64,000 nucleotides of DNA from Heterodontus francisci (taxonomy: Eukaryota): NCBI RefSeq assembly GCF_036365525.1, contig NC_090380.1:96247942-96311941 (forward strand), in the 5' to 3' direction. The notes beneath the pieces are model-generated. The model did not search any database, had not been told where the DNA came from, and saw nothing but the letters and a program-made list of their open reading frames with translations. Shown here piece after piece: positions 7,508-55,899 of the stretch (positions are counted from its first letter, which is position 1; each line of letters opens with the position of its first letter). A program made the position numbers and the translations under genes.

Positions 7508-8829
7508 TGTTCCTACCGAGACCGGAGGAGTGCACTGTTTTTCTAGTTCCACTTCTCCACAGGTCACAACATATATATAAATTTTTTCCAAGTTTCTGAT
7601 AAGGTCAATCATAAACTCTAGTTTAATCCCAGAATAAAATACACCAACCAGGTTTCTTTAACAAACAACAAAATTATCAGTTTATTATAAAACAAGACTT
7701 AACCAGTAACGAAACAAAGCATGAACACACAGATTGAAATATAAAAGTTCCCTTTGTACCTTAGCCCCTCATACACACACACACCAGTTAACTGAAAAAA
7801 TAAAAAGATTTACTCTTTAGGGCTCTGTTACAAAAAAAAAGACAAGAAGAATGCTTTGGCCAAATACTTCCTCATTCTTGAAGAAAAAAGAGAAGATATG
7901 GAAAGATGCCAGATGTCCTTTTTTCCGGTTTGGGGTCCTAAATACGCGTAGACAGCTGTCTCTGGGATCTTCCTGGAACAGTTCTTTTTGGGTGATGTTA
8001 AAGATCAGTTTGGGCAGGCTTTCCAGGAGGAATGCAGCAACAGGGGTTTCAGGCAGACCTTGCAGAAGGAATGCAGCCTCAATTTCTCTGTTTCTTATAC
8101 TCGCTTCTAAGAACTTCTCAAAGATATGAAAAATTGGCAGGCTTTTCAAAGAGCTAGAAAAGGTTGAGTTGGGGTTTGTCCTTGGCAGGTTGAATCTTTT
8201 ACTCCTTTTCAGAACACTGTCCATACCCCAACTGCCTGTCCAAAGTGAAACCAAAAACATCTCACGAGTCAAGTCTCCTGACCCCTATAAATCTTGATCT
8301 GTCACTTCTCTGTAAACATCTTCCCCAAGTCAAAAAGCCTCCCCTGCTGGCTATTTATAGAGTCATAGAGTTATGCAGCACAGAAACAGGCCCTTTAGCC
8401 CACTGTGTCCACGCCGGCCATCAAAACTATCTGTTCTAATCCCATTTTCCAGCATTTGGCCTGTAGCCTTGTATGATGTAGACCAGACCAGTTAAGGATG
8501 GCAGATTTCCTTCCCTAAAGGACATTAGTAAACCAGATGGGTTTTTACAGCAATTGACAATGGTTTCATGGTCATCATTAGACTAGCTTTTAATTCCAGT
8601 TTTTTTTTAATTAATTGAATTAACATTTCACCATCTTCAATGGTGGGATTCGAACCCATGTCCTCAGCATTAGCCTGGGCCTTTGGATTACTCATCCAGT
8701 GAAATTACCACTACACCACTGCCTCCCCAACTATCTGAAAACAGATGTCTTGCAGTACCTGAATCTTTTATTCAGTTTTAAAACACAAATTCTCATAATT
8801 TAACAAAAAAAATGGAAGCACTCATAACA
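7508..8829 (-). mobile_element. Solo LTR (TG..CA) with nested CR1 tail (~8358-8480) and SINE (~8480-8728)
   Basis: tgttcctacc..ctcataaca ends; flanks AGAT/AAAT; homologous to the 20549 and 50251 elements. Confidence 0.65.
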
Positions 8830-20548: not shown

Positions 20549-22491
20549 TTTTACGACTGAGGCAGGAGCAATGCACTGTCAATTCAGTCCCATCGCTCCA
20601 CAGGTCGCGCATATTATTAAAGTTTTCCCACCCAACTGGAAAACAGCCAAATTAAACACTCTAGTAACCCCCAGAATAAAACAGACCAAACCAGCTATTT
20701 TTAGACAACAACAAATTAAATATTTATTACAAACTAAATCTTAAACACTATTAAGATGTCTAAAGACCTTATTACTTCTTATTTTAACCTAACTCCCCCA
20801 TTCACACACATACACTCAAAAATCAATGGTTAACCGTTTTTTTTTTAAAAAAAAGAATAATGTTTTAAAAATCAGCTGTTTCTTGAGAATAAATAAATAA
20901 CAAGGTTATCAGTCTTTGTGGGTTACGTTCCTGATGGGTGAGGTATCCTAGTGAAAAAATAATCAAATGCCACTCGCAGTCTCCACACGGATTTTGATGA
21001 AACAGTCTCTTAGTAGATAGGCATTCAAACATTTCGGCTGCAGGAGGCATCACACAACTCCCTCAACAATGAGTACAGCAACAGGTCTATTTGAACCTTT
21101 AAAAATCGGCAGTCTCTCAGTAAAAACTTTACTCCAGAAATACAAATGGTCTCTTCAAAGGGTTTTTTCCTCCTTAGACAATTAATTCACCTGTAGCTGA
21201 TTGTAGAATTTCTGCTGAGAGAAATAGACAGCTCTTTCCTTCACTAGTGTCTCTCAAAACTGTTTTTTGCTGGATTTTTACACACAGTTAAATTGATACA
21301 TTATACTATGTGACCTCCTCACTCTCCTGTTGTTGCCTGGAATGGAGACGTGTGACCAGTGGTGTTCCACAGGGATCCGTGCTGGGACCACTGTTGTTTG
21401 TGATATACATTAATGATTTGGAGGAAAGTATAGGTGGATTGATTAGCAAATTTGCAGACGACACTAAGATTGGTGGAGTAGCAGATAGTGAAGGGGACTG
21501 TCAGAGAATACAGCAGAATATAGATAGATTGGAGAGTTGGGCAGAGAAATGGCAGATGCAGTTCAATCAGGGCAAATGCGAGGTGATGCATTTTGGAAGA
21601 TCCAATTCAAGAGCGAACTATACAGTAAATGGAAAAGTCCTGGGGAAAATTGATGTCCAGAGAGATTTGGGTGTTCAGGTCCACTGTTCCCTGAAGGTGG
21701 CAACGCAGGTAAATAGAGTGGTCAAGAAGGCATACGGCATGCTTTCCTTCATCGGACGGGGCATTGAGTACAAGAGTTGGCAGGTCATGTTACAGTTGTA
21801 TAGGACTTTGGTTCGGCCACATTTGGAATACTGCGTACAGTTCTGGTCGCCACATTATCAAAAGGATGTGGATGCTTTGGAAAGGGTGCAGAGGAGGTTC
21901 ACCAGGATGTTGCCTGGTATGGAGGGCGCTAGCTATGAAGAGAGGTTGAGTAGATTAGGATTATTTTCATTAGAAAGACGGAGGTTGAGGGGGGACCTGA
22001 TTGAGGTGTACAAAATCATGAGAGGTATAGACAGGGTGGATAGCAAGAAGCTTTTTCCCAGAGTGGGGGTTTCAATTACTAGAAGACACGAGTTCAAAGT
22101 GAAAGGGGAAAAGTTTAGGGGGGATATGCGTGGAAAGTTCTTTACGCAGAGGGTGGTGGGCACCTGGAACGCATTGCCAGCGGAGGTGGTAGATGCGGGC
22201 ACGATGGAGTCTTTTAAGATGTATCTAGACAGATACATGAATGGGCAGGAAGAAAAGAGATACAGAAGCTTAGAAAATAGGCGACATGTTTAGAGAGAGG
22301 ATCTGGATCGGCGCAGGCTTGGAGGGCCGAAGGGCCTGTTCCTGTGCTGTAATTATCTTTGTTCTTTGTTCTATAACAAGTGCGGCTGGCACTCTGTGCC
22401 TCTTAGTTTTTAAAGACACACTGTTTTTAAACAGAGTTGTAAAGGCACACTGTTTTAATCCAAGGCGAAAAATAAATACAGTTCCATGGCA
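20549..22491 (-). mobile_element. Solo LTR interrupted by a CR1 insertion
   Basis: Start homologous to 7508 and 50251 (..gcactgtc..ccacaggtc..cccagaataaaa..aaacca); LTR sequence resumes after 22372. Confidence 0.55.
21335..22372 (+). mobile_element. CR1 LINE 3' portion (RT ORF 21310-22293)
   Basis: [17 protein letters not shown] and RPHLEYCVQFWSP motifs; tail gggccgaagggcctgttcctgtgctgta..gttct repeats. Confidence 0.92.
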
Positions 22492-43669: not shown

Positions 43670-46600
43670 TTAAATTCTTTTGGGCCTCCTTATCTCGAGA
43701 GACAATGGATACGCGCCTGGAGGTGGTCAGTGGTTTGTGAAGCAGCGCCTGGAGTGGCTATAAAGGCCAATTCTGGAGTGACAGGCTCTTCCACAGGTGC
43801 TGCAGAGAAATTTGTTTGTTGGGGCTGTTGCACAGTTGGCTCTCCCCTTGCGCCTCTGTCTTTTTTCCTGCCAACTACTAAGTCTCTTCGACTCGCCACA
43901 ATTTAGCCCTGTCTTTATGGCTGCCCGCCAGCTCTGGCGAATGCTGGCAACTGACTCCCACGACTTGTGATCAATGTCACACGATTTCATGTCGCGTTTG
44001 CAGACGTCTTTATAACGGAGACATGGACGGCCGGTGGGTCTGATACCAGTGGCGAGCTCGCTGTACAATGTGTCTTTGGGGATCCTGCCATCTTCCATGC
44101 GGCTCACATGGCCAAGCCATCTCAAGCGCCGCTGACTCAGTAGTGTGTATAAGCTGGGGGTGTTGGCCGCTTCAAGGACTTCTGTGTTGGAGATATAGTC
44201 CTGCCACCTGATGCCAAGTATTCTCCGAAGGCAGCGAAGATGGAATGAATTGAGACGTCGCTCTTGGCTGGCATACGTTGTCCAGGCCTCGCTGCCGTAG
44301 AGCAAGGTACTGAGGACACAGGCCTGATACACTCGGACTTTTGTGTTCCGTGTCAGTGCGCCATTTTCCCACACTCTCTTGGCCAGTCTGGACATAGCAG
44401 TGGAAGCCTTACCCATGCGCTTGTTGATTTCTGCATCTAGAGACAGGTTACTGGTGATAGTTGAGCCTAGGTAGGTGAACTCTTGAACCACTTCCAGAGC
44501 GTGGTCGCCAATATTGATGGATGGAGCATTTCTGACATCCTGCCCCATGATGTTGGTTTTCTTGAGGCTGATGGTTAGGCCAAATTCATTGCAGGCAGAC
44601 GCAAACCTGTCGATGAGACTCTGCAGGCATTCTTCAGTGTGAGATGTTAAAGCAGCATCGTCAGCAAAGAGGAGTTCTCTGATGAGGACTTTCCGTACTT
44701 TGGACTTCGCTCTTAGACGGGCAAGGTTGAACAACCTGCCCCCTGATCTTGTGTGGAGGAAAATTCCTTCTTCAGAGGATTTGAACGCATGTGAAAGCAG
44801 CAGGGAGAAGAAAATCCCAAAAAGTGTGGGTGCGAGAACACAGCCCTGTTTCACACCACTCAGGATAGGAAAGGGCTCTGATGAGGAGCCACCATGTTGA
44901 ATTGTGCCTTTCATATTGTCATGGAATGAGGTGATGATACTTAGTAGCTTTGGTGGACATCCGATCTTTTCTAGTAGTCTGAAGAGACCACGTCTGCTGA
45001 CGAGGTCAAAGGCTTTGGTGAGATCAATGAAAGCAATGTAGAGGGGCATCTGTTGTTCACGGCATTTCTCCTGTATCTGACGAAGGGAGAACAGCATGTC
45101 AATAGTCGATCTCTCTGCACGAAAGCCACACTGTGCCTCAGGGTAGACGCGCTCGGCCAGCTTCTGGAGCCTGTTCAGAGCGACTCGAGCAAAGACTTTC
45201 CCCACTATGCTGAGCAGGGAGATTCCACGGTAGTTGTTGCAGTCACCGCGGTCACCTTTGTTTTTATAGAGGGTGATGATGTTGGCATCGCGCATGTCCT
45301 GGGGTACTGCTCCCTCGTCCCAGCACAGGCATAGCAGTTCATGTAGTGCTGAGAGTATAGCAGGCTTGGCACTCTTGATTATTTCAGGGGTAATGCTGTC
45401 CTTCCCAGGGGCTTTTCCGCTGGCTAGGGAATCAATGGCATCACTGAGTTCCGATTTGGTTGGCTGTATGTCCAGCTCATCCATGACTGGTAGAGGCTGG
45501 GCTGCATTGAGGGCAGTCTCAGTGACAGCATTCTCCCTGGAGTACAGTTCTAGGTAGTGCTCAACCCAGCGGTCCAACTGTTTGCGTTGGTCAGTGATTA
45601 TGTCCCCCGATTTAGATTTGAGGGGGGTGATCTTCTTGATGGTTGGCCCAAGAGCTCTCTTCATGCCATCATACATTCCTCTGATGTTTCCGGTGTCTGA
45701 GGCCAGCTGAATATGACTGCATAGGTGTTGCCAGTAGTCGTTTGCGCAACGCCTAGCTGTTCTTTGTGCAGTACTTCTGGCTGCTTTAAGTGCTGCGGAT
45801 GTTAAATCGCTGGGGGCTTTCTTGTCGTTCAAAAATGCAATGCGCTTAGCGGCTATGACAGGTTCCAGCTCTTCATTATGAGATTGAAACCAGTCTGCAT
45901 TTCTCTTCGCACTTTTGCCGTAGGTGGTCAAAGCTGACTCATAGATGGCGTCTCTGATGTGGGCCCACTTGGTCTCAGCATCCCCTGTGGGAGTGTTTTG
46001 AAGGGCTGTTACAAGTGAATTTAGAAATTTTTGTAACAGCTGTGGGTGAGAAATTCTGCTCGTGTTGATGCGCGGGTGGCCCTTCTGCTTGGAATGATGC
46101 AACTTCTTTGGTCTGAGTCTAACCTTGCTGCACACCAGGGAGTGGTCGGTGTCGCAGTCCGCACTGTGGAAGCTGCGTGTGATTTGAACACTGTTTAAGG
46201 CGGCTCGCCTTGTGACAATGAGGTCTAGCTGGTGCCAACGACGTGATCTTGGGTGCCTCCATGAAACCTGGTGACAGGGTTTAGTGTGAAAGAACGAGTT
46301 GGTGATGCAGAGGTTATGATAGGTATACAACTCAAGCAGTCTCTGCCCGTTCTCATTCATCCTTCCAACGCCATAGCGCCCAAGGCAGGAGGGCCATGAG
46401 TCATGGTCGGCCCCAACCCTGGCATTAAAGTCCCCCAGCAGGAATAGGTGTTCGGTGTTGGGGATGCTGCTAATGATGTTATGGAGTTGTTCATAGAACT
46501 GGTCTTTAGCTTCAGGTGCGGAGCAGAGTGTTGGAGCATAGATGCTGAGTAGGTGTACTGGACCAGAGGTGGTGAGCAGTCGGATGGACAGTATGCGTTC

Positions 46601-47440: not shown

Positions 47441-49130
47441 GTATCTAAAGCAGGATGTGGATCAGACACCATCAGCAGTGTTGAGAGGCTGGGATACCAG
47501 GAAATTAAGCAGGGTTGATTACATTTTCTTTTTGTGCTATCTTTCTAAAGTCTGCTTGTGATTTGTTTTGCTTTGATCTAACATTAGAGGATACAATTTT
47601 GTACCATTTGATTGAAGCAAGTTAATCAGAGTCCACTGTTAATTTGAGGCAAATGTGGTTGCAATGTAAACGGATCCCAAAGATCGGAGATCACAGTTTG
47701 CTCCTTCTGTGTGTGTCGCACTGCTGAGTGAACTTTGGGTAACTGTGGAAATGGCCTGTTGTTGCCCTGCAGTCCATTGTGTGTGTGCATGTAAACACAA
47801 TCAGCGAGACGTGTACCTGAGTGACACTTGCTACAATTGCTGCCACAGGAAGATAAGGAGAACTACAAGCTGATAACAGATGTTATCAGAGCAGTAAGCT
47901 GCTTTGTAACACTCTGGGGAACTCCCTTAGGAAAACAAATAGAGACATAACAGTTTGTCACTTGCTTTTGAATGATTTTGCCCTTTATTTTCAAGGGGAG
48001 GGTACAGAACTCCAGGGCTGCCCTAGATGGGATATGAAGTAAGACTAATTTTTTTAAACCCTTTGCCACAATGAGAAGAAATAATGAAATTCTATCCCTT
48101 TCTGTATTGAATGCTGGAATCATACAGTATGCATTACAATAGATTAAAACAATTGTATTCCAATTCTGCAATAGGCTATTAATCAATATTAAGCATTTTA
48201 CTCAGAAGAGGACACTTGCTGCCTATGTTCTGACCATGTGACCCACAGTCAGTTGCTCTGGATAGCAGTCTAGCAGACCACAGAGAACATGAAGAGACTC
48301 GCAAGTCCTGTTGACCGTGGCCTATGCTGATTAGGCCTATACACTGGAGAAGGAAGAATGTATGGAGCCCTACAAAGGGCAAAGGGAAAAGTACACCAAA
48401 CAGGAGTTATAAGAAGAGTTAGCAGAAGTCACTGTAGATCTGATCAAATTGGTTGTGTTTGAGGATGTTTTTGAAGGTGGGGATTGATGTAGTAAGGCAG
48501 ATATCGGGGTATCGGTTCTGAGTGGGTTGACCCCCAGAACTAGGACCTAATTCTAACTATTTCTAATTCAGATAAATTATCTGAATTCAAAAACTTAATG
48601 CAAGGTGGTCAAATTTGCAAATGGTGCTAAACCATCATGGGCAGTAGAATCTAGAAGGCAGCTGAGAAATTACAGAATGATTTTGACAAAAAATGCGGGT
48701 GGTCAGAACAATGGTAGATTAAACTTAAGGCAGTAAAGTGGTGCAAATGGGAGAAAAATATAAACAACACACGTGCTTCATCATCAATGGCGCTGAAATA
48801 CCTAAGGATCAAACTGAAAGAGACCTAGGAATCTTAGTGGATTCCATGCTAAACATGTCCAACCAGTGCAGAGCAGCTTTCAACAACACCAATAGATATT
48901 GAAGAATACAGCCAACAGAGTAAAATGTACCTCAGGGAAGTAATAATTAAATTATGTAATGATTAAACTCTGGTGATACCGCACCTGAAATAATATGGCC
49001 ACTTCTGATTGCCAAGAAATAAGAGAGGCATTTGAATGTTGAAGGTAGAGTAGAGCCCTGAATTGGATCACTAACGTCAGAGTCTGAGGACAGATGAAAG
49101 AATAGTGAGCTTTTTAACTAAGAAAGGAGC

Positions 49131-49390
49131 TGTAAAGAGAGCTTTTTATGTTGTCTGATGCAACATAAATGAGATGCATGGAGTTTAGTTGATTGAAGAT
49201 CTCAAACAGGTTTATTAAACAGCTAAACTATTATATACAGTGCAAAGCTATCTATTTATAGAAGCTGCCTCTAGGTGTTACAGCAGCAGAGTGAGACTAG
49301 CGTGTAGCCACATGGCTGCATCCTGGTACTCAGCTCATTAGCATATTAAGATCTTAAAGGGACATCACTCTTAAAGGCAATAACACAACA
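49131..49390 (-). repeat. 3' LTR
   Basis: Direct repeat of 52959-53220; AATAAA and TATA-like motifs on the minus strand; preceded by purine tract GGAAAGAAGGG-TAA (49391-49404). Confidence 0.92.
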
Positions 49391-49553
49391 TTACCCTTCT
49401 TTCCAAAGAAAAGTCTTGTATGCTAAAAGCAAACGCATGTTAAATTGGATAACATCAAAATTATTTATATAGGCATAGAGATTATGAATTTTACAAATAT
49501 AGAAGCTCAAAAGTTCATATATCGTCTAGGTCATTTGATAACTCTTGCTCGGG

Positions 49554-50000
49554 GAGTTTGCATCACATCTGTTACTGTTCTTTCTGAAGTTTCTCCCTCT
49601 TTGCATTTAGTTTCTATTGCTCTCCTTTCAGCTTGCTAACATACTTTGTTGCTTTTCTCAAGATGACCACTTTTGAGGCCTTGTTATTCTTGGAAAGTTC
49701 CGCCACCTCATCTAGAAGAGCCAATAGACAACGCTTCAACTCATTCCTCCTCTGCCTCTTCAGGACATTGTGTCTCCTTTGCCTCTCCTCATCCTCCGTG
49801 TCTGAAGGCATGGGGCTCCAGGTTGAGGACTTTTGGGGGGCTAAGAGTAGTTGGTCTCATGGAGATACCTGTCCATTCTGGCTCATTGTGGTGTTGGCAG
49901 TTCTCTAAAGAATAGAAGTGAAGGTGTGGCATAGTTGTGCTGTTGCTGGGTTTCCATACTGCACTGTTTGATGCTGACCAGAGTCTGCAAGCGGGTTCTG
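49554..50000 (-). pseudogene. myc: Captured MYC-family C-terminal segment (exon-3 equivalent: HNY motif, NLS-like, bHLH-Zip), decayed
   Basis: LVSIKQC..QQQHNYATPS; PTPQ*ARMD; SPMPSDTEDEERQRRHNVLKRQRRNELKRCLLALLDEVAELSKNNKASKVVILRKATKYV; zipper KLNAKREKLQKEQ*QM*CKL. Five in-frame stops and one frameshift near 49831-49840. Confidence 0.9.
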
Positions 50001-50025
50001 GTCTTTGGAGATTTCCCCTTGGCAA

Positions 50026-51460
50026 TGCTCTCGTGGATGGTTATGATGTTGAGGTCCTTACACGCTGGTAGTCTTGCCACTTCTGGTCCGCTCGTGTCTA
50101 CTAGGTAGAATGTTTGTGGTTTCCAAGGTAACTTGCCGAATCTGCATTGCATTGTTAATGTGCCACTGCACAGGATGGGTGACCCATTGAATGCAGATAA
50201 CTTGGCAGTTGTCGGTTGTATCATTGATCTCCAATGTCTCCGGTACATATTTTTACAACCAAAGAAGGAGTAATGTACTGCTAATTCAGTCTCACCACTC
50301 CACAGGTCATAGCATATTAGTTAAGTTTCCCACCTACCAGAAAGTAGCCAAATTAAACACTCTTTTTGTCCCCCAGAATAAAGCACACCAAACCAGGTTT
50401 CTTTAAACAACAACAAAATTAACTATTTATTAATAAACTAAGTCTTAAACAATAATGAGATAATTCGAAATGTGAAAAGATTCTTTTTAAAACTTCTTAT
50501 TCTTCCTAACCCTCATGCACATATACATTAAAAAAAAGGTTAACTGTTTTTAAAAGGATGTTTTGGATTTCAGCTGTTTCTTAGGAATAATAAAATAACT
50601 GGGGTGTAACGTTCTGGTAGGATATTTCTGGGTCGGAGAGGTGTCCCAGAGTCGAAAAGTTGGATGCCACTTGAAGTCTTTCCAGGCGAGGTTGGCAAAC
50701 AGTCTTTGATGGGTAGGTGTTCACAGCACTTCATCTGCAGCAGACATCAGCAAAGGGTGTAGCAACAGGTCTACTTGGGTTTGGAAATAGCAGTCTAACA
50801 ATAGAAGCTTTCTTGAGCTCTCAGGATCTCTGCCAACATAAGAGGCAACAGAAATCACTCCTGAGGAAAAGATTTTTCAGAGACTGGAGGCAATAGGAAT
50901 TTTCTACCTTTTAAAATGCAGGGCTTCCTCTCAGCAAAGCAGCCTTCCTCCACAGAGTGCAGCAACTTCTCTTTTCCTGGGTCTTTTCCCTCTAGGGGTC
51001 TTTTTTCTCTCCAGGCAGATCACAGCGACCACCTCAAATGTAGAATTTCTTTTTACAAGAGAGGGAAGCCATCTTTTTCAGGGAGAGGTCTTTTTTTCTG
51101 GTCTGCAAGTTTGTTCTGCCTTCTGCCTGCCCAGCACTAGTCTTTTACAAAGCAAAAGTGAAACTGAACTCTAACAATAAGTCATGTTACCTGTCATTAT
51201 TTCCCTTACTGTTGTTTGGAACAGGTGTCTTGCAGTCTGTCCCTCTCAGTTCAAATGCCAAGTTTCAGCATTCAATGTTCACAGAAAAATCCTCTTTCTT
51301 AGTTTTTAAAAACACACAGAATTCTTAGCTTTCAATAAAAAAACAAAACTCTTGTGACAATATCTTTGAAGAATCAGACTGTTCGGATATTTCCACTAGC
51401 TCTGATGTCAATCTTGACCCTGAGTCTATGTTTGCCAGCTTTCTTTGGGTGCATGATGTT
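50026..51460 (-). pseudogene. Gypsy aspartic protease remnant, split by the solo LTR at 50251-51359
   Basis: LRVKIDIRASGNI (decayed DTGAS active site). After LTR removal it continues in frame FKD-MY..TAKLSAFNGSPI..FYLVDTSGPEVARLPACKDLNII. Confidence 0.8.
50251..51359 (-). mobile_element. Solo LTR nested in the protease gene
   Basis: Homologous to the 7508 and 20549 elements; exact 4-bp TSD ATAT (50247-50250, 51360-51363). Confidence 0.85.
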
Positions 51461-51728
51461 AATAATGGCGAAAGCTTCCAGTTGTTGGACTTCATCAACG
51501 AGATGTGTCAGGTCCACAATGTGGAATGCCTGTTCATCTTCTGTCTGAGAACTACTTCTCTCTGAGTCTTGTCTCAGGTCTGCTTTGCTCTGGACCTCGT
51601 GTGTTGGCCTGCATTTACACAGGTTTCTGGCACTTTCCTTGCTGCTGTTTGCAGTGTTGCTGCACCTGACTTCTGTTTGCTTGTGTCTGACCGTTATTTC
51701 TGGCTGAGTCTTTGGAGCCAGAATTCCT

Positions 51729-51810
51729 GCATGGGCAGACCCAGTGTCCTTTAACACCTCATGCCTTGCACAGGTCTCGAAATGCAAGGCAATTTCGCTG
51801 TGAGTGGGAC
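51729..51810 (-). pseudogene. Gag nucleocapsid zinc-knuckle remnant
   Basis: HSQRNCLAFRDLCKA*GVKGHWVCPC = Cx2Cx4Hx4C with the second Cys mutated to a stop. Confidence 0.7.
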
Positions 51811-51813
51811 AGA

Positions 51814-52648
51814 CTGGTGTGCAGCAAAGTTAGACTCAAACCAAAGAAGCTACATCACCCCAAGCAGAAGGGCCACCTGCGCATCAACACTAACAGAATT
51901 TCTTATCCACAGCTGTTACATAAGTTTCTAAATTCACTTGAAAAAGCCCTTCAAAACACTCCTGCAGGGGATGCAGAGACCAAGTGGGCCCACATCAGAG
52001 ACGCCATCTATGACTCAGCAATAACCACCTTTGGCAAACGTGAGAAACAGAATGCAGACTAGTTTCAATCTCATAATGAAGAGCTGGAACCTGTCATAGC
52101 CGCCAAACGCATAGCACTGTTGAACTACAAGAAAGCCCCCAGCGAGTTAACATCCATAGCACTTGAAGTAGCCAGAGGCGCTGCACAAAGAACAGCCAGG
52201 CGCTGTGCAAATGACTACTGGCAACACCTATGCAGTCGTATTCAGCTGGCCTCCGACACCAGAAACATCAGAGGAATGTATGATGGCATTAAGAGAGCTT
52301 TTGGGCCAACCATCAAGAAGATCGCCCCCCTCAAGTCTAAATCAGGGGACACGACCACTGACCAATGCAAACAAATGGAACGATGGGTGGAGCACTACCT
52401 AGAACTGTACTCCAGGGAAAATGTTGTCACTGATACCACCCTCAATACAGCCCAGTCTCTGCCAGTCATGGATGAGTTGGACGAACAGCCAACAAAATCG
52501 GAACTTAGTGATGCCATTGATTCTCTAGCCTGTGGAAAAGCCCCGGAAAGGATGGCATTACCCCTGAAATAATAAAGTGTGCCAAGCCTACTATACTCTC
52601 AGCATTCCATGAACTGCTTTGCCTGTGCTGGGATGAGGGAGCAGTACC
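51814..52648 (+). mobile_element. Internal RTE fragment inside the LTR element (antisense to it)
   Basis: Homologous to ~46138-45302 of the full-length RTE; lacks 5' end, 3' tail and TSD. Confidence 0.9.
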
Positions 52649-52946
52649 TGAATTTTTTGCTCTCCCAGGGAGCCTTTGACAGACAAAAAAAAAATCAATC
52701 CTTTAATGACTTCAAGGCTTCTCTTTTTTTAAAAAATGGGGATTCCTCTACCAACAGCAGACTGACTCACCAGATCACAGTAATTACTTTTCAGCCTGTC
52801 TTTTAGCTCTGTCCTCTGCACCTGTAGGTGAGTTCCTTTTTCTTCTTTACACTGAGCCAATATTTCTTTTAACTTTCTTTTAGCTGTAGGTAGTCTTTAA
52901 AGCTGTTTTCCTGTGGTCTTCAATCTTGTATCTTGTCTTCTCACAA

Positions 52947-52958
52947 CTGCTGCCACCA
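52947..52958 (-). promoter_or_regulatory. Primer-binding site (tRNA-Leu type)
   Basis: TGGTGGCAGCAG directly after the 5' LTR; the complement of the vertebrate tRNA-Leu(AAG/TAG) 3' end is TGGTGGCAGCGG. Confidence 0.75.
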
Positions 52959-53220
52959 TGTAGTGAGAAGCTTTTTATGTTGTCTGATGCAACATCAATG
53001 CGATGCATGGAGTTCAGTTGATTGAAGATCTCAAACAGGTTTATTAAACAGCTGAACTATTATATACAGTGCAGAGCCATCTATTTACAAAAGCTGCCTC
53101 TAGGTGTTACAGTAGCAGAGTGAGACTGGCATGTATTTCACATGACTGCATCCTGGTACTCAGCTCATTAGCGTACTAAGATCTTAAAGGGATATCAATC
53201 TTAAAGGCAATAACACTACA
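52959..53220 (-). repeat. 5' LTR
   Basis: Direct repeat of 49131-49390; followed on the plus strand by TSD GGAGC. Confidence 0.92.
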
Positions 53221-55899
53221 GGAGCTGTCTGAAAAACGATCATACAAGATCATTAAAGGTACGGAAGAAATTAGCCTAGATTATTCCTTTAAATTTAAAC
53301 TGTGGGAGTTGAACTAGAGGATATGGGTTCAAACTAGTAAATGGTAGTTGTAGGACTGATATCAGGAAATTCTCTGTCTCATGAAGAGTGATCAACTGAG
53401 GGAGTGAACTACCTTTAGGCAAAAAACTCTCAAATAATTTCAGGAACAACAGGATGCTAACACTTGGGGTATGTGGGGAGGTGTTAAGATCTCTGTGGAT
53501 GGATGGATTAAGGTGGGATGCATGACCTTTCTCACCCAAACGTATCTTGTGAATAGTCACTCAAGTAACAACTTTCTAATAATTGATCTGGCAATTGTAT
53601 TATATTGTCTGTCCTCCTGTGTAGAGTGTTGCAATGATGAGTGCCTAATGTAAGGATCAGGTCTTGCTAAACGCCAACCAAGAAGACTCCTCAGAGAAGG
53701 TGATATATCCCCCCAAAAAGCCAACAACTCAAAAAGAAATTGACTGCTCAGAAATGTAACCCTACAAATAGGGCCATTGCTTTAGAAGTGCCTCAGTAAG
53801 TTTTCTTTTATACTCTTCCTTATGCTATTAAATATTACTCCTGCTCATACATATGTTCACTATGTAAGACAGAAAAATTATATTTCTTTGTTTTAAAATT
53901 AGCTAAGTTCTACTTCAACAGAAACATATGATGCTGGCTGGTGATCCAAAGCTGATGCTGTAACCAATAACCACCATAGCAATGCTGGTGAGCCTTGCAG
54001 TAGGAGGAACACTTATCTGAATAATGCAACTTAATAATGGACTAATTCTTGTGTATCTTTAGATATTATCATCATTTGAATGTTCCAACGTGTGAAAGAA
54101 CTGTAAAGAATTAAGCAGTTTAGTAAGAGGTAAACTAAAACTAACCAACATAAAAAGGAGTTTGGGTTTAATTGTTGAGAGGCCACAATACCTCATCCAG
54201 TTAATTCCAAAAGACGATTGGGCTATGTCTCTCATGTGCTTATGTGCTTGACAAGCCAAAATTATGGGGGACCCTGGTCTTTGCTCTGAACTACCTGCAA
54301 CTCAACATCAATCTCCTACTTCCCCATTTAATCTCCACATACAAATACCCCAAACCACAAAAGGTAATTGAGGAAATTCACTGGGGTAGTTATTCATTCA
54401 CACATCTCTGCTATTCAACTCTGCTTTGGTCCAGACATTTTTTCCCAGCACAGGAACCTGTATAAAGTTGGCAGAACCCAAACACTGGCTAAGTCAGCGA
54501 TGGTAAAGCATGCCTCTTTGGTATTGTATTACTCCTATGGAGACATTAGGAAGCTGATATAGAATAATCTGGCACTGAATTATTCCTATGGGGACATTAA
54601 GATATAAAGGAAATATTTGCTGCCAGGAATACAGTAAAATGTACCCAAGGGTACCTCTTTCTGAGCAAAGTAGTTGTGACTGAAGAAATGACTCTGGACG
54701 GTGCTGATTGACTCATGATTTCAGTGTGTCTACTTTACATATAGCCATCATTTGCTTAGGAACAGTGGCCATTTTGTTCTCTCCTCTTTCATACTCAATG
54801 ATAAGATGATATGTCACATAGATAAGTACAGACAATGGAGAGCATTTAGCCTATCTAGCTCATGGAGATGACAAAAGCAATTTAAATAGCAACTTTGACG
54901 TAGAAAAATATCCCTTTAACATTGAAAAACAGATGTAATCAGAAAGAAAATGGACACCAAGACAAAGCTGAAGCTATTTGAAGTGCTGGAATGGTCTTAA
55001 AGGAAAAGAGGGAGGTGAAGGGGTTTAGGAAGGAAATTCCAGAGTGTGGGGCAAAGATGCCTGCAGGCATGACTGCCAGTGCTGGTGCGATAGCAGGGAA
55101 GGGCTGCACAATAGGGTGAAATTGGAGCAACGGAGATTATTGGGAACTAGTGGAGGGCTAGAGGAGGTTACAGAGATAAGGAGAAGCAAATCCATGGAAG
55201 GATTTAAACACAAGGATGAGAGTTTTAAATTGAAGGTTTTGGGGGACTGGTGGAATTTTACTGGCCCCTTGGTGACAGGCTTAGAGATGGTGCGTGGTGC
55301 CATTAAAATGTTGGGGGACTGTGTCGGAGCCGATCCCCATCGTCTTCCAAGTTTCCCGGGATGGTTGGGCAGTGGGATTGCAGGATGGGCAGGTAATTGA
55401 GGCTGTTAAGCAGCCAAATTGAGAGCAATTTTGCAGTACTTTTTAAATTTTCCATGAGGAGTATCGGCAGCTTGCCTGTTAAAAGGAGGTGAGAGCTTAT
55501 TGGCAGGTGAGTGTCAGCTGGAAGTGACAGCCATTGAGTAAAGCTGCATTGTCAGGCTCAGGTTCTGGTAAGCAAAGGTTTGGACATTTGCAGGGATTGC
55601 AGAGTGTGAGGCCAGGGAGGCAGGTAGTTAGTGGAAGCGTGTTCTCCAGGTCCACTGCAGCAGGTGCAGACAGCACTAGGGGGTTGAGAGGTATTGCACC
55701 GTGAAGGCTCCGAATCTCAATGTGTGCTCTGCATTCTCAGTTTGACTCCTCCAACGAGGAAGAGAGTGGGAGAGAGAGACTGCACCAGCCACATGGAGTG
55801 GGGCTGCAGTGGCCAGAGGAGCACCAGCACCATGAAACTGTGACGAGATGCAGACAATGAGGGTGCATATGGCAATAAGGCAGGCCAATGTTCGCAGAA

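Follow-up and report, generated by a model that had tools for sequence, protein, structure and literature searches.

How a piece of a Myc-family gene came to lie inside a Gypsy-type LTR retrotransposon, and what it may have done there, is the question raised by a 4-kb locus in the 64,000-nucleotide stretch of Heterodontus francisci DNA analyzed here (the window). An earlier note on this DNA had read the locus as a v-myc-like capture, made by template switching onto a co-packaged mRNA and integrated as a unit with the aid of a helper element.

Structure of the element in the window

The whole element lies on the minus strand of the window (Table 1) and carries the structural features of Ty3/Gypsy elements, namely TG..CA LTRs, a primer-binding site (PBS), a polypurine tract (PPT) and a target-site duplication (TSD) within the 4–6 bp range. 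All parts of the complete unit that had been claimed, including the 5-bp duplication GGAGC, the PBS and the PPT, were found. The K2P distance between the two LTRs is 0.086. The PBS, which we take to be of the tRNA-Leu type, begins with the same letters in the helper element L067 described below and in 4/8 measured copies (TGGTGGCA), and differs by one base in 3 more; the 5′ leader is 72–78% identical to other copies.

Table 1. Positions of the element and its parts in the window
Feature	Position	Strand	Remark
5′ TSD GCTCC	53221..53225	-	GGAGC on +
5′ LTR, 262 bp, TG..CA	52959..53220	-	239/262 columns identical to 3′ LTR
PBS TGGTGGCAGC	52941..52958	-	directly after 5′ LTR
Element 5′ leader	52660..52940	-	alignable with helper L067 as far as window 52784
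Nested LINE fragment, presumably RTE-like	51815..52655	+	ends approximate; 89% identical to second copy at 45303-46137
gag 3′ end (decayed Cys knuckle) and first protease half	51360..51810	-	78% identical to helper L067 1728-2184
Decayed protease active-site motif	51415-51395	-	
Nested 1.1-kb solo-LTR-like insert, other family	50251..51359		ATAT duplication; splits protease
Second protease half	50030..50250	-	in frame into Myc segment; 87% identical to helper L067 2167-2401
Captured mych last-exon segment	49557..50029	-	donor residues about 201-357
HNY motif	49939-49922	-	followed by NLS-like stretch
Basic region	49772-49746	-	followed by HLH and zipper
Integrase end and 3′ UTR	49405..49556	-	element-derived, after 3′ switch point
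PPT GGAAAGAAGGGTAA	49391..49404	-	before 3′ LTR
3′ LTR, 260 bp, TG..CA	49131..49390	-	81.5% identical to helper 5′ LTR
3′ TSD GCTCC	49126..49130	-	

Two nested insertions were found in the element. The LINE fragment, whose RTE-like label is our assumption from its motifs, stands where the element lacks about 1 kb of its gag, and the 1.1-kb solo-LTR-like insert is missing at the equivalent place in 29 other short copies. When the window was compared with the helper, only the LTR, the leader, the gag end with protease and the 3′ end were aligned (the last at 75%, window 49544-49237), and nothing of the RT, RNase H and integrase core was left in the window, in agreement with the earlier reading of Gag knuckle and protease remnants without a replication core. 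The Myc frame of the window copy is broken by 4 stops and one 2-nt insertion. A Pfam search of the gag and protease pieces gave no recognized domain, and none of 707 candidates matched at E 1e-8 when the L054 gag-protease was compared with longer proteins.

Donor of the Myc segment and capture from mRNA

The Myc segment gave an HLH Pfam match (E 8e-10) and agreed with the last coding exon of the host mych gene at 419/474 nt (88% DNA identity), as compared with 63% for c-myc and 59% for N-myc over 254 nt; the HNY motif, NLS-like segment and bHLH-Zip first read from the letters were thus borne out. The donor is the host mych paralogue, the fourth Myc paralogue, and not c-, N- or L-myc. L-myc was ruled out as the donor; the donor exon is identical to P0001, a protein named ‘myelocytomatosis oncogene homolog’. 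In the fusion region of P0132, 8 of 220 candidates matched, comprising 4 host mych proteins and 4 element-borne proteins, all of the latter named from the donor's species.

The exon 2–exon 3 junction was read in the long forms, as the short form of the window lies within one exon. In 10/10 long relatives the 1,707-nt host intron was cleanly gone with the exons in register, and the capture was therefore from mRNA. Further, P0006 is encoded intronless in 975 bp.

An intronless piece could also come from a LINE-made mych retrocopy that inserted later, the explanation which the earlier note had set against its own, and LINE fragments do enter elements of this family, the window copy included; an assembly chimera is a further alternative. 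However, neither poly(A) nor a separate TSD was found at either end of the Myc segment in the window copy, the segment stops within coding sequence, and element sequence was replaced rather than interrupted. A contig under another organism label (X5 record 14) bridges the junction, and the identical junction was found at 918 places with different TSDs. Both explanations are refuted, because identical junctions recur at unrelated loci.

The helper element and the template-switch junctions

Helper L067 shares the LTR (81.5%), gag and protease (87%) with the myc-bearing element, and its matches to RVT_1, RT_RNaseH and rve are arranged as in Gypsy elements. No env frame was present in L067, where about 150 nt separate the integrase end from the 3′ LTR. 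Compared with solved structures, the helper RT gave three matches, 4ol8, 7q5b (Ty3-G Gag-Pol) and 8r0s, with none else under E 1e-5, and among these structures it appears to be nearest to Ty3, with retroviral RT less close. The full sequence was read for one helper copy, and a readable junction was present in 1/4 short helper pieces; the helper-type junction motif had 1,061 matches in total, with 0 in the control.

Relative to the helper, mych stands in place of RT, RNase H and the integrase core, and the reading frame is preserved at both original ends. The 5′ switch point is a 7-nt exact microhomology, GGATGCA (random expectation 0.0006), and the 3′ switch point has CAAATT (6 nt) plus a further 9-nt match (15/19; random expectation 0.0019). 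Two later upstream deletions are likewise in frame. The loss of the intron together with microhomology at both ends supported the proposed template switching, and integration as a unit was supported by a helper that shares the LTR and shows the replaced interval to be RT–RNase H–integrase.

These junctions suggest the following course. An env-less Gypsy-type element with a single gag-PR-RT-RH-IN frame would have co-packaged the spliced host mych mRNA, and its reverse transcriptase would have switched to this mRNA and later returned, each time at a short shared stretch. As the anatomy shows, the end of exon 2 and exon 3 of mych, without boxes I and II, thereby replaced the RT, RNase H and integrase core in frame. 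The resulting chimera, which retained the LTRs, PBS, PPT, gag and protease, presumably relied for its copying in trans on the parent family, itself found here.

Copies, subfamilies and age of the family

The window element is a decayed member of a Gypsy-type LTR family that is non-autonomous and numbers at least about 1,450 copies in genome G000. The junction motifs were found 918 times in the short form and 539 times in the long form, while the reversed-pattern controls gave 0 and 1, respectively; the matches are therefore not due to chance, and the short- and long-form motifs did not cross-match in a 40-copy sample. Recurrence of the same junctions at many loci with different TSDs, which the earlier note had named as a check, was thus obtained, whereas its picture of a single event gave way to a family that has more than 1,400 members and falls into subfamilies formed by one deletion after another. 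The window copy is of the shortest form, which is also the most numerous. The window copy and 4/8 copies with measured LTR pairs have a 5-bp TSD of their own, and the other 4/8 are without a clean TSD; in 11/20 larger loci, the 6 kb examined did not show both LTRs.

The tree placed the host and 8 long copies apart from all 30 short and 2 long copies with 95/90 support; it is star-like, with 27/38 inner branches open. All copies examined were old and mostly decaying. At the epaulette shark mutation rate of 7e-10 per generation (95% CI 1.4-14.1e-10; PMC10587355), the K2P distance corresponds to about 6e7 generations, an age that appears excessive whatever plausible generation time is assumed, and therefore no date in years is given.

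Loss of the E-box-reading glutamate and absence of Myc boxes I and II

The E-box is read by a His/Glu/Arg triad (PMC7226237, PMC10437117). In the family, the E-box-contacting Glu has changed to Lys, with 633 exact motif matches for Lys vs. 48 for Glu, a number that includes the host gene itself; that is, Glu is replaced in 633/681 exact matches, about 93%. Similarly, Glu was present in 4/40 sampled copies and Lys or its derivatives in 36/40, and most element copies are without the intact triad. None of the captured pieces seen begins before donor residue 121. Myc boxes I and II, at 43 and 101 (DCMW at 101), are both farther upstream and were never captured, and the captured piece lacks the parts by which Myc drives cancer.

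In the retroviruses MC29, MH2 and FeLV-myc, myc replaces replication genes, with helper dependence and intron loss, and is fused to gag in MC29. These viruses are enveloped, infectious and somatic, transform cells, and carry c-myc with boxes I/II and an intact basic region. The shark element agrees with them in architecture, in having a gag-(pro)-myc fusion, replaced replication genes, helper dependence and an mRNA origin. In contrast, it is env-less and germline-amplified, it carries mych without boxes I/II and mostly with Lys for the E-box Glu, the RT of its helper is nearest to Ty3 among solved structures, and the full-length elements most closely related to it are single-frame and env-less, one of them named from sea urchin. 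The likeness to v-myc therefore stands for the replacement of replication genes by a myc-family gene and fails for function, and a transforming element or endogenised acutely transforming retrovirus, already largely refuted, is highly improbable.

The marine invertebrate Ty3/Gypsy elements P0150, P0167 and P0122, a clade that we assume to be Mag-like, also have a single gag-PR-RT-RH-IN frame like the helper. They are 37-43% identical to the shark family over the protease and spacer, with a similar Cys knuckle region and a TRxGR terminal motif, but carry no captured host gene.

Reading frames, selection and the role of the Myc piece

All 3/3 upstream junction types keep the frame of the bHLH-Zip (a chance of about 1 in 27 for random, independent junctions), and the common downstream deletion leaves the integrase end in a different frame. 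None of the subfamilies seen lacks the bHLH-Zip, with flanking parts lost; a KRAR NLS-like stretch and the zipper are present in all forms, and an EEIDVV box is present in the long forms and gone from the most numerous form. The HLH has diverged least from the host, with 0.87 amino-acid identity vs. 0.79-0.81, and the columns where at least half of the copies differ from the host number 2/45 in the HLH, 3/15 in the basic region and 3/17 in the zipper. The in-frame upstream junctions fit selection for a bHLH-Zip protein and selection for a merely open frame equally.

Purifying selection on the Myc part was not detected, in a test made weak by the star-like tree. With transitions and transversions separated, no excess of synonymous changes was found among shared variants (p 0.70 and 0.81), and the protease control also gave no signal (p 1.0 and 0.21). 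A first tally had given a synonymous share of 0.33-0.38 for shared variants vs. 0.24 for singletons; this excess was rejected because it vanished upon that separation, being an artefact of recurrent transitions.

On balance, the family is probably helper-dependent and defective-interfering-like, with the Myc piece a disarmed open-frame passenger. During its spread, as the copies show, the E-box-reading Glu gave way to Lys and successive deletions shortened the element. The Myc piece most likely kept the polyprotein frame open, as a translated, stable and packaged RNA needs, and variants with less Myc activity and a shorter RNA presumably out-replicated the others, like defective-interfering genomes.

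Myc and Max are a textbook pair, and Max has a repressor link with Mga. It is possible, if doubtful, that after the same capture the Myc piece was useful as a dominant-negative Max decoy, a bHLH-Zip without transactivation domain or E-box recognition, perhaps freed by the element's own protease, which favoured element expression or survival in germ cells. The three in-frame junction types, the never-deleted bHLH-Zip, the early sweep of Lys, the few host-differing columns in the HLH vs. the basic region and the higher number of myc-bearing (at least 1,457) than helper-type junctions are consistent with a decoy, although RNA surveillance or translation-coupled packaging would explain the in-frame junctions equally, the zipper also has shared changes, and the selection signal is missing. 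As to numbers, non-autonomous elements are described as often exceeding their parents without cargo function (PMC5131818). A bHLH-Zip-only dominant negative, Omomyc, has been described, and mutating the E-box Glu abolishes DNA binding (PMC7226237). Omomyc and the element piece are both bHLH-Zips without a transactivation domain; however, Omomyc is engineered, retains E-box binding and has zipper changes (PMC7226237). That the element-borne bHLH-Zip, by giving up E-box recognition but retaining its dimerisation surface, evolved into a Max-sequestering decoy aiding germ-line spread, e.g., by relieving Max-dependent repression, is rather unlikely.

The in-frame fusion to Gag-protease could instead have given the Gag polyprotein a structural or targeting role through the NLS, zipper-driven assembly or chromatin tethering by EEIDVV, with the Myc network unaffected. 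We take the EEIDVV motif to be c-Myc box IIIb. Box IIIb of c-Myc binds WDR5 (PMC7226237), and the NLS-like stretch and zipper occur in all forms, but the EEIDVV box was lost from the most numerous form, a selection signal was not found, and the helper provides such functions in trans, making this role improbable. Returning to the disarmed passenger, the sweep at the E-box Glu suggests that a mobile Myc fragment is tolerated in a germ line only after it has been disarmed, or else that the element used it as a decoy.

Comparison with other gene captures, and implications

LTR-mediated retrocopies, in which internal ORFs are replaced by partial mRNA with a median of 6 bp microsimilarity at the switch points, have been reported from fly (including Gypsy elements), mosquito, zebrafish (5/7 young retrocopies), chicken, mouse and human, and have been copied further as non-autonomous elements (Tan et al. 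2016, PMC5131818). As that report describes it, the mechanism is already known, and LTR-mediated gene capture in vertebrates is not new. The shark family shows the features expected of such retrocopies, with ORF replacement, intron loss, switch microsimilarity and the absence of poly(A) and an own TSD. The cases described there are single- or few-copy, whereas the shark family runs to at least 1,450 copies in several subfamilies, is fused in frame at both of its original junctions and carries a Myc-family cargo. The word ‘oncogene’ does not occur in the main text of PMC5131818. Maize Bs1, an LTR element with host exons, was also secondarily retroposed with shared switch points, but is described with one to five copies per genome and three donor genes, in a plant (PMC5131818). 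An earlier description of Myc-family capture amplified to such a scale was not found in the literature searched, most subscription papers and repeat databases lying outside its scope.

The family is a complete fossil record, left by an env-less element in the germ line of a vertebrate, of the proposed steps of oncogene capture, i.e., co-packaging, two microhomology template switches, intron loss, in-frame gag fusion, helper dependence and later deletion, with donor, helper and intermediates all within one genome. Its large copy number permits testing whether the cargo was selected for, against, or neutral. If the decoy were true, oncogene transduction would be reversed into a transposon-borne anti-Myc, the first capture of a host transcription factor serving a vertebrate Gypsy element. 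At least 4 element copies bear a myc or N-myc-like gene annotation, and such entries will lead both the counting of Myc-family genes and the mapping of reads in sharks astray.

Structure of the element in the window

The provirus-like unit described in the earlier note, with two ~260-bp TG..CA LTRs, a TSD, a PBS and a PPT, was confirmed. The LTRs are 262 and 260 bp long, both have TG..CA ends, and they are identical in 239 of 262 columns (K2P 0.086); the TSD reads GCTCC on the minus strand, and PBS and PPT are both in place. The interior comprises a leader, a nested LINE fragment occupying the site of ~1 kb of missing gag, the gag end, a protease interrupted by a 1.1-kb solo-LTR-like insert, and the Myc segment, in agreement with the gag, protease and Myc bHLH remnants noted before. 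The Myc segment scored as HLH (E 8e-10). A stop-free frame runs from the protease through to the Myc HNY motif, and beyond this motif the Myc frame holds 4 stops and one 2-nt insertion. The solo-LTR-like insert was also found beside four other loci of the genome searched (L028, L052, L053 and L059).

Positions in the window of the element and of relatives of its nested inserts
Feature	Position	Strand	Remark
Whole element	49131-53220	minus	Confirmed as a real unit
Second RTE-like LINE fragment	45303-46137		89% identity to the nested LINE fragment, opposite orientation
Relative of the 1.1-kb protease insert	20564-21052		71%
Relative of the 1.1-kb protease insert	7628-7712		83%

The Myc segment derives from spliced mych mRNA

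Among 118 genome matches (119 of 1,624 candidates scored), three host Myc loci were found, namely c-myc, N-myc and mych, and no L-myc locus. The Myc segment matched the mych locus on contig C16 at 419 of 474 nt, vs. 63% for c-myc and 59% for N-myc (254 nt each), and the C16 donor exon is identical to P0001, the H. francisci protein that NCBI names 'myelocytomatosis oncogene homolog' (mych). The donor lineage was assayed in 40 copies at 10 positions where P0001 departs from five other shark mych proteins. Because 291 of the 398 readable codons carry the donor residue (61 carry another shark's residue and 46 neither), the capture took place inside the donor's lineage. The catshark mych protein (P0003) carries a short tandem duplication directly before the basic region.

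The short form present in the window lies wholly within exon 3 and is thus uninformative on intron loss, while the longer relatives, which hold the end of exon 2 plus exon 3, are informative. In every one of the 10 long loci, host exon 2 is joined by its last base directly to the first base of exon 3, the 1,707-nt host intron being absent, and the database protein P0006 has the order protease, short spacer, mych exon 2 end and exon 3 in a coding sequence of 975 contiguous bases. At least four element copies (P0006, P0132, P0286 and P0287) bear the NCBI names 'myc' or 'N-myc proto-oncogene protein-like', and start with protease or pol-spacer sequence.

Helper element and switch points

A protease query returned 362 relatives, including single-frame gag-PR-RT-RH-IN proteins, one of them named from sea urchin, and a gag-PR-RT-RH-IN query found many gag-pro-RT loci in the shark genome (58 of 59,319 candidates scored). 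The helper anatomy was taken from one locus, L067, continued by L072. It shares the LTR (81.5%), protease (87%), leader and gag with the window element, and carries a Ty3-like RT, RNase H and an integrase core in Gypsy order, so a helper such as the earlier note had supposed does exist, although this copy is itself broken. No env was found in L067/L072, where the integrase end is followed by ~150 nt and then the 3' LTR. Nested insertions interrupt the integrase (L067:4568-5417) and the 3' LTR (L072:487-785). The helper-type junction motif occurred 1,061 times in the genome (control 0).

The sequence GGATGCA is common to helper and mych at the 5' switch, in the same frame; this original junction was seen at 7 of 10 long loci (clean in 5), the other 3 beginning deeper in exon 2. 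The 3' switch has CAAATT in both, followed, after four mismatches, by nine further shared bases, also in frame. Matches of 7 and 6 bases at random position pairs were obtained in 0.06% and 0.19% of draws, respectively. Together with the missing intron, this microhomology at both switches bears out the proposal that myc was picked up from mRNA by template switching. Excerpts of PMC5131818 give microhomology at switch points as the signature of LTR-mediated retroposition, and the shark element shows the same signature.

Amplification and order of the forms

An 851-nt protease-Myc-3' query matched all 40 scored candidates (of 5,002), 39 of them outside the window locus, at 83-87% identity. The 22-nt protease-Myc junction motif occurred 918 times (≤2 mismatches; control 0), and the spliced-junction motif of the long form 539 times (control 1). 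Since the two motifs show no cross-matching among the sampled copies, of which they pick up 22/30 short and 9/10 long ones, their sum of 1,457 is a floor; extrapolating roughly from this sampling, which is skewed towards well-kept copies, gives ~1,850 copies. The junction register was the same in 29 of 30 short copies, and off by a base in the remaining one. Both LTRs were present in 9 of 20 larger loci (6 kb fetched per locus) and not in 11. In 8 measured LTR pairs, the unit size was 3.15-3.18 kb in six and shorter in two, K2P was 0.088-0.122 in seven and 0.24 in one, and four copies had clean 5-bp TSDs, each different. Identical junctions thus recur at many loci with different TSDs, which is what the earlier note had proposed to count, and capture, helper dependence and amplification are nearly certain. 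Five matches of the same score and extent on contig C29 (33.4-42.0 Mb) are probably one copy within a recent segmental duplication or assembly duplication.

The upstream junctions seen were of three types: the original, a second type deeper in exon 2 (P0006 and P0287), and that of the window element, which lies inside exon 3. Protease and Myc share one frame in all three. Several downstream integrase-tail deletions are in frame, and the commonest is out of frame. A tree of 40 copies plus host was star-like, with 27 of 38 inner branches open and the bootstrap not settled; it separated host and 8 long copies from all 30 short and 2 long copies (support 95/90). From this split and the element anatomy we infer that the long form probably came first and the short form later.

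Role of the captured Myc piece

The capture starts at donor residue 121, past the motifs at 43 and 101, and the short form, which has lost EEIDVV as well, starts at residue 201; we take these motifs to be Myc boxes, the first two being boxes I and II. At the Glu position of the His/Glu/Arg triad, the 40 copies have Lys (28), Arg (7), Met (1) or Glu (4), and exact motifs genome-wide number 633 with Lys vs. 48 with Glu, the host gene being one of the 48. Mutation of this Glu abolishes DNA binding according to an excerpt of PMC7226237, and the triad also appears in an excerpt of PMC10437117; a title cited within PMC8870482 states that the amino-terminal domain is needed for transformation. Because boxes I and II precede the capture point and the triad Glu is mostly replaced, a transforming v-myc is unlikely, the proposed likeness to acutely transforming v-myc viruses is not supported as regards function, and we give a transforming role scarcely any credence.

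The Myc cargo seems, on balance, to be a passenger that was disarmed. That it instead serves the element as a Max decoy is a lesser possibility, consistent with the in-frame upstream junctions, the retention of the bHLH-Zip by all subfamilies seen, and an HLH that is closer to the host (0.87) than the other parts are (0.79-0.81). However, stratified counts gave no synonymous excess among the variants shared between copies (p 0.70 and 0.81), in a test that is weak because the protease control was equally blank. A structural aid is a quite improbable role for the piece.

Novelty and occurrence beyond the window

LTR-mediated capture is an already described mechanism, with cases from zebrafish, chicken and mammals; the vertebrate cases of PMC5131818 are listed in its supplements. 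Targeted literature searches, which covered the listings of a chiefly open-access library, found no env-less Gypsy element that had captured a Myc-family gene and reached >1,400 copies.

The family occurs beyond one species label, because the short junction is spanned by an organism B contig (X5 record 14, 49936-50222). DNA-run contigs of organism C covered 20 of 30 bins and none of the unique flank, and none of 8 matches was an element-borne fusion named from a different species. An X2 contig spans the 3' LTR into the flank, and X2 may be the source sample. Contigs of X9, a run guessed to be RNA, have a loose end at window position 49569 or 50030; they extend into mych 3' sequence of the host type and into a stretch lying upstream of the short junction, the latter being host or long form.
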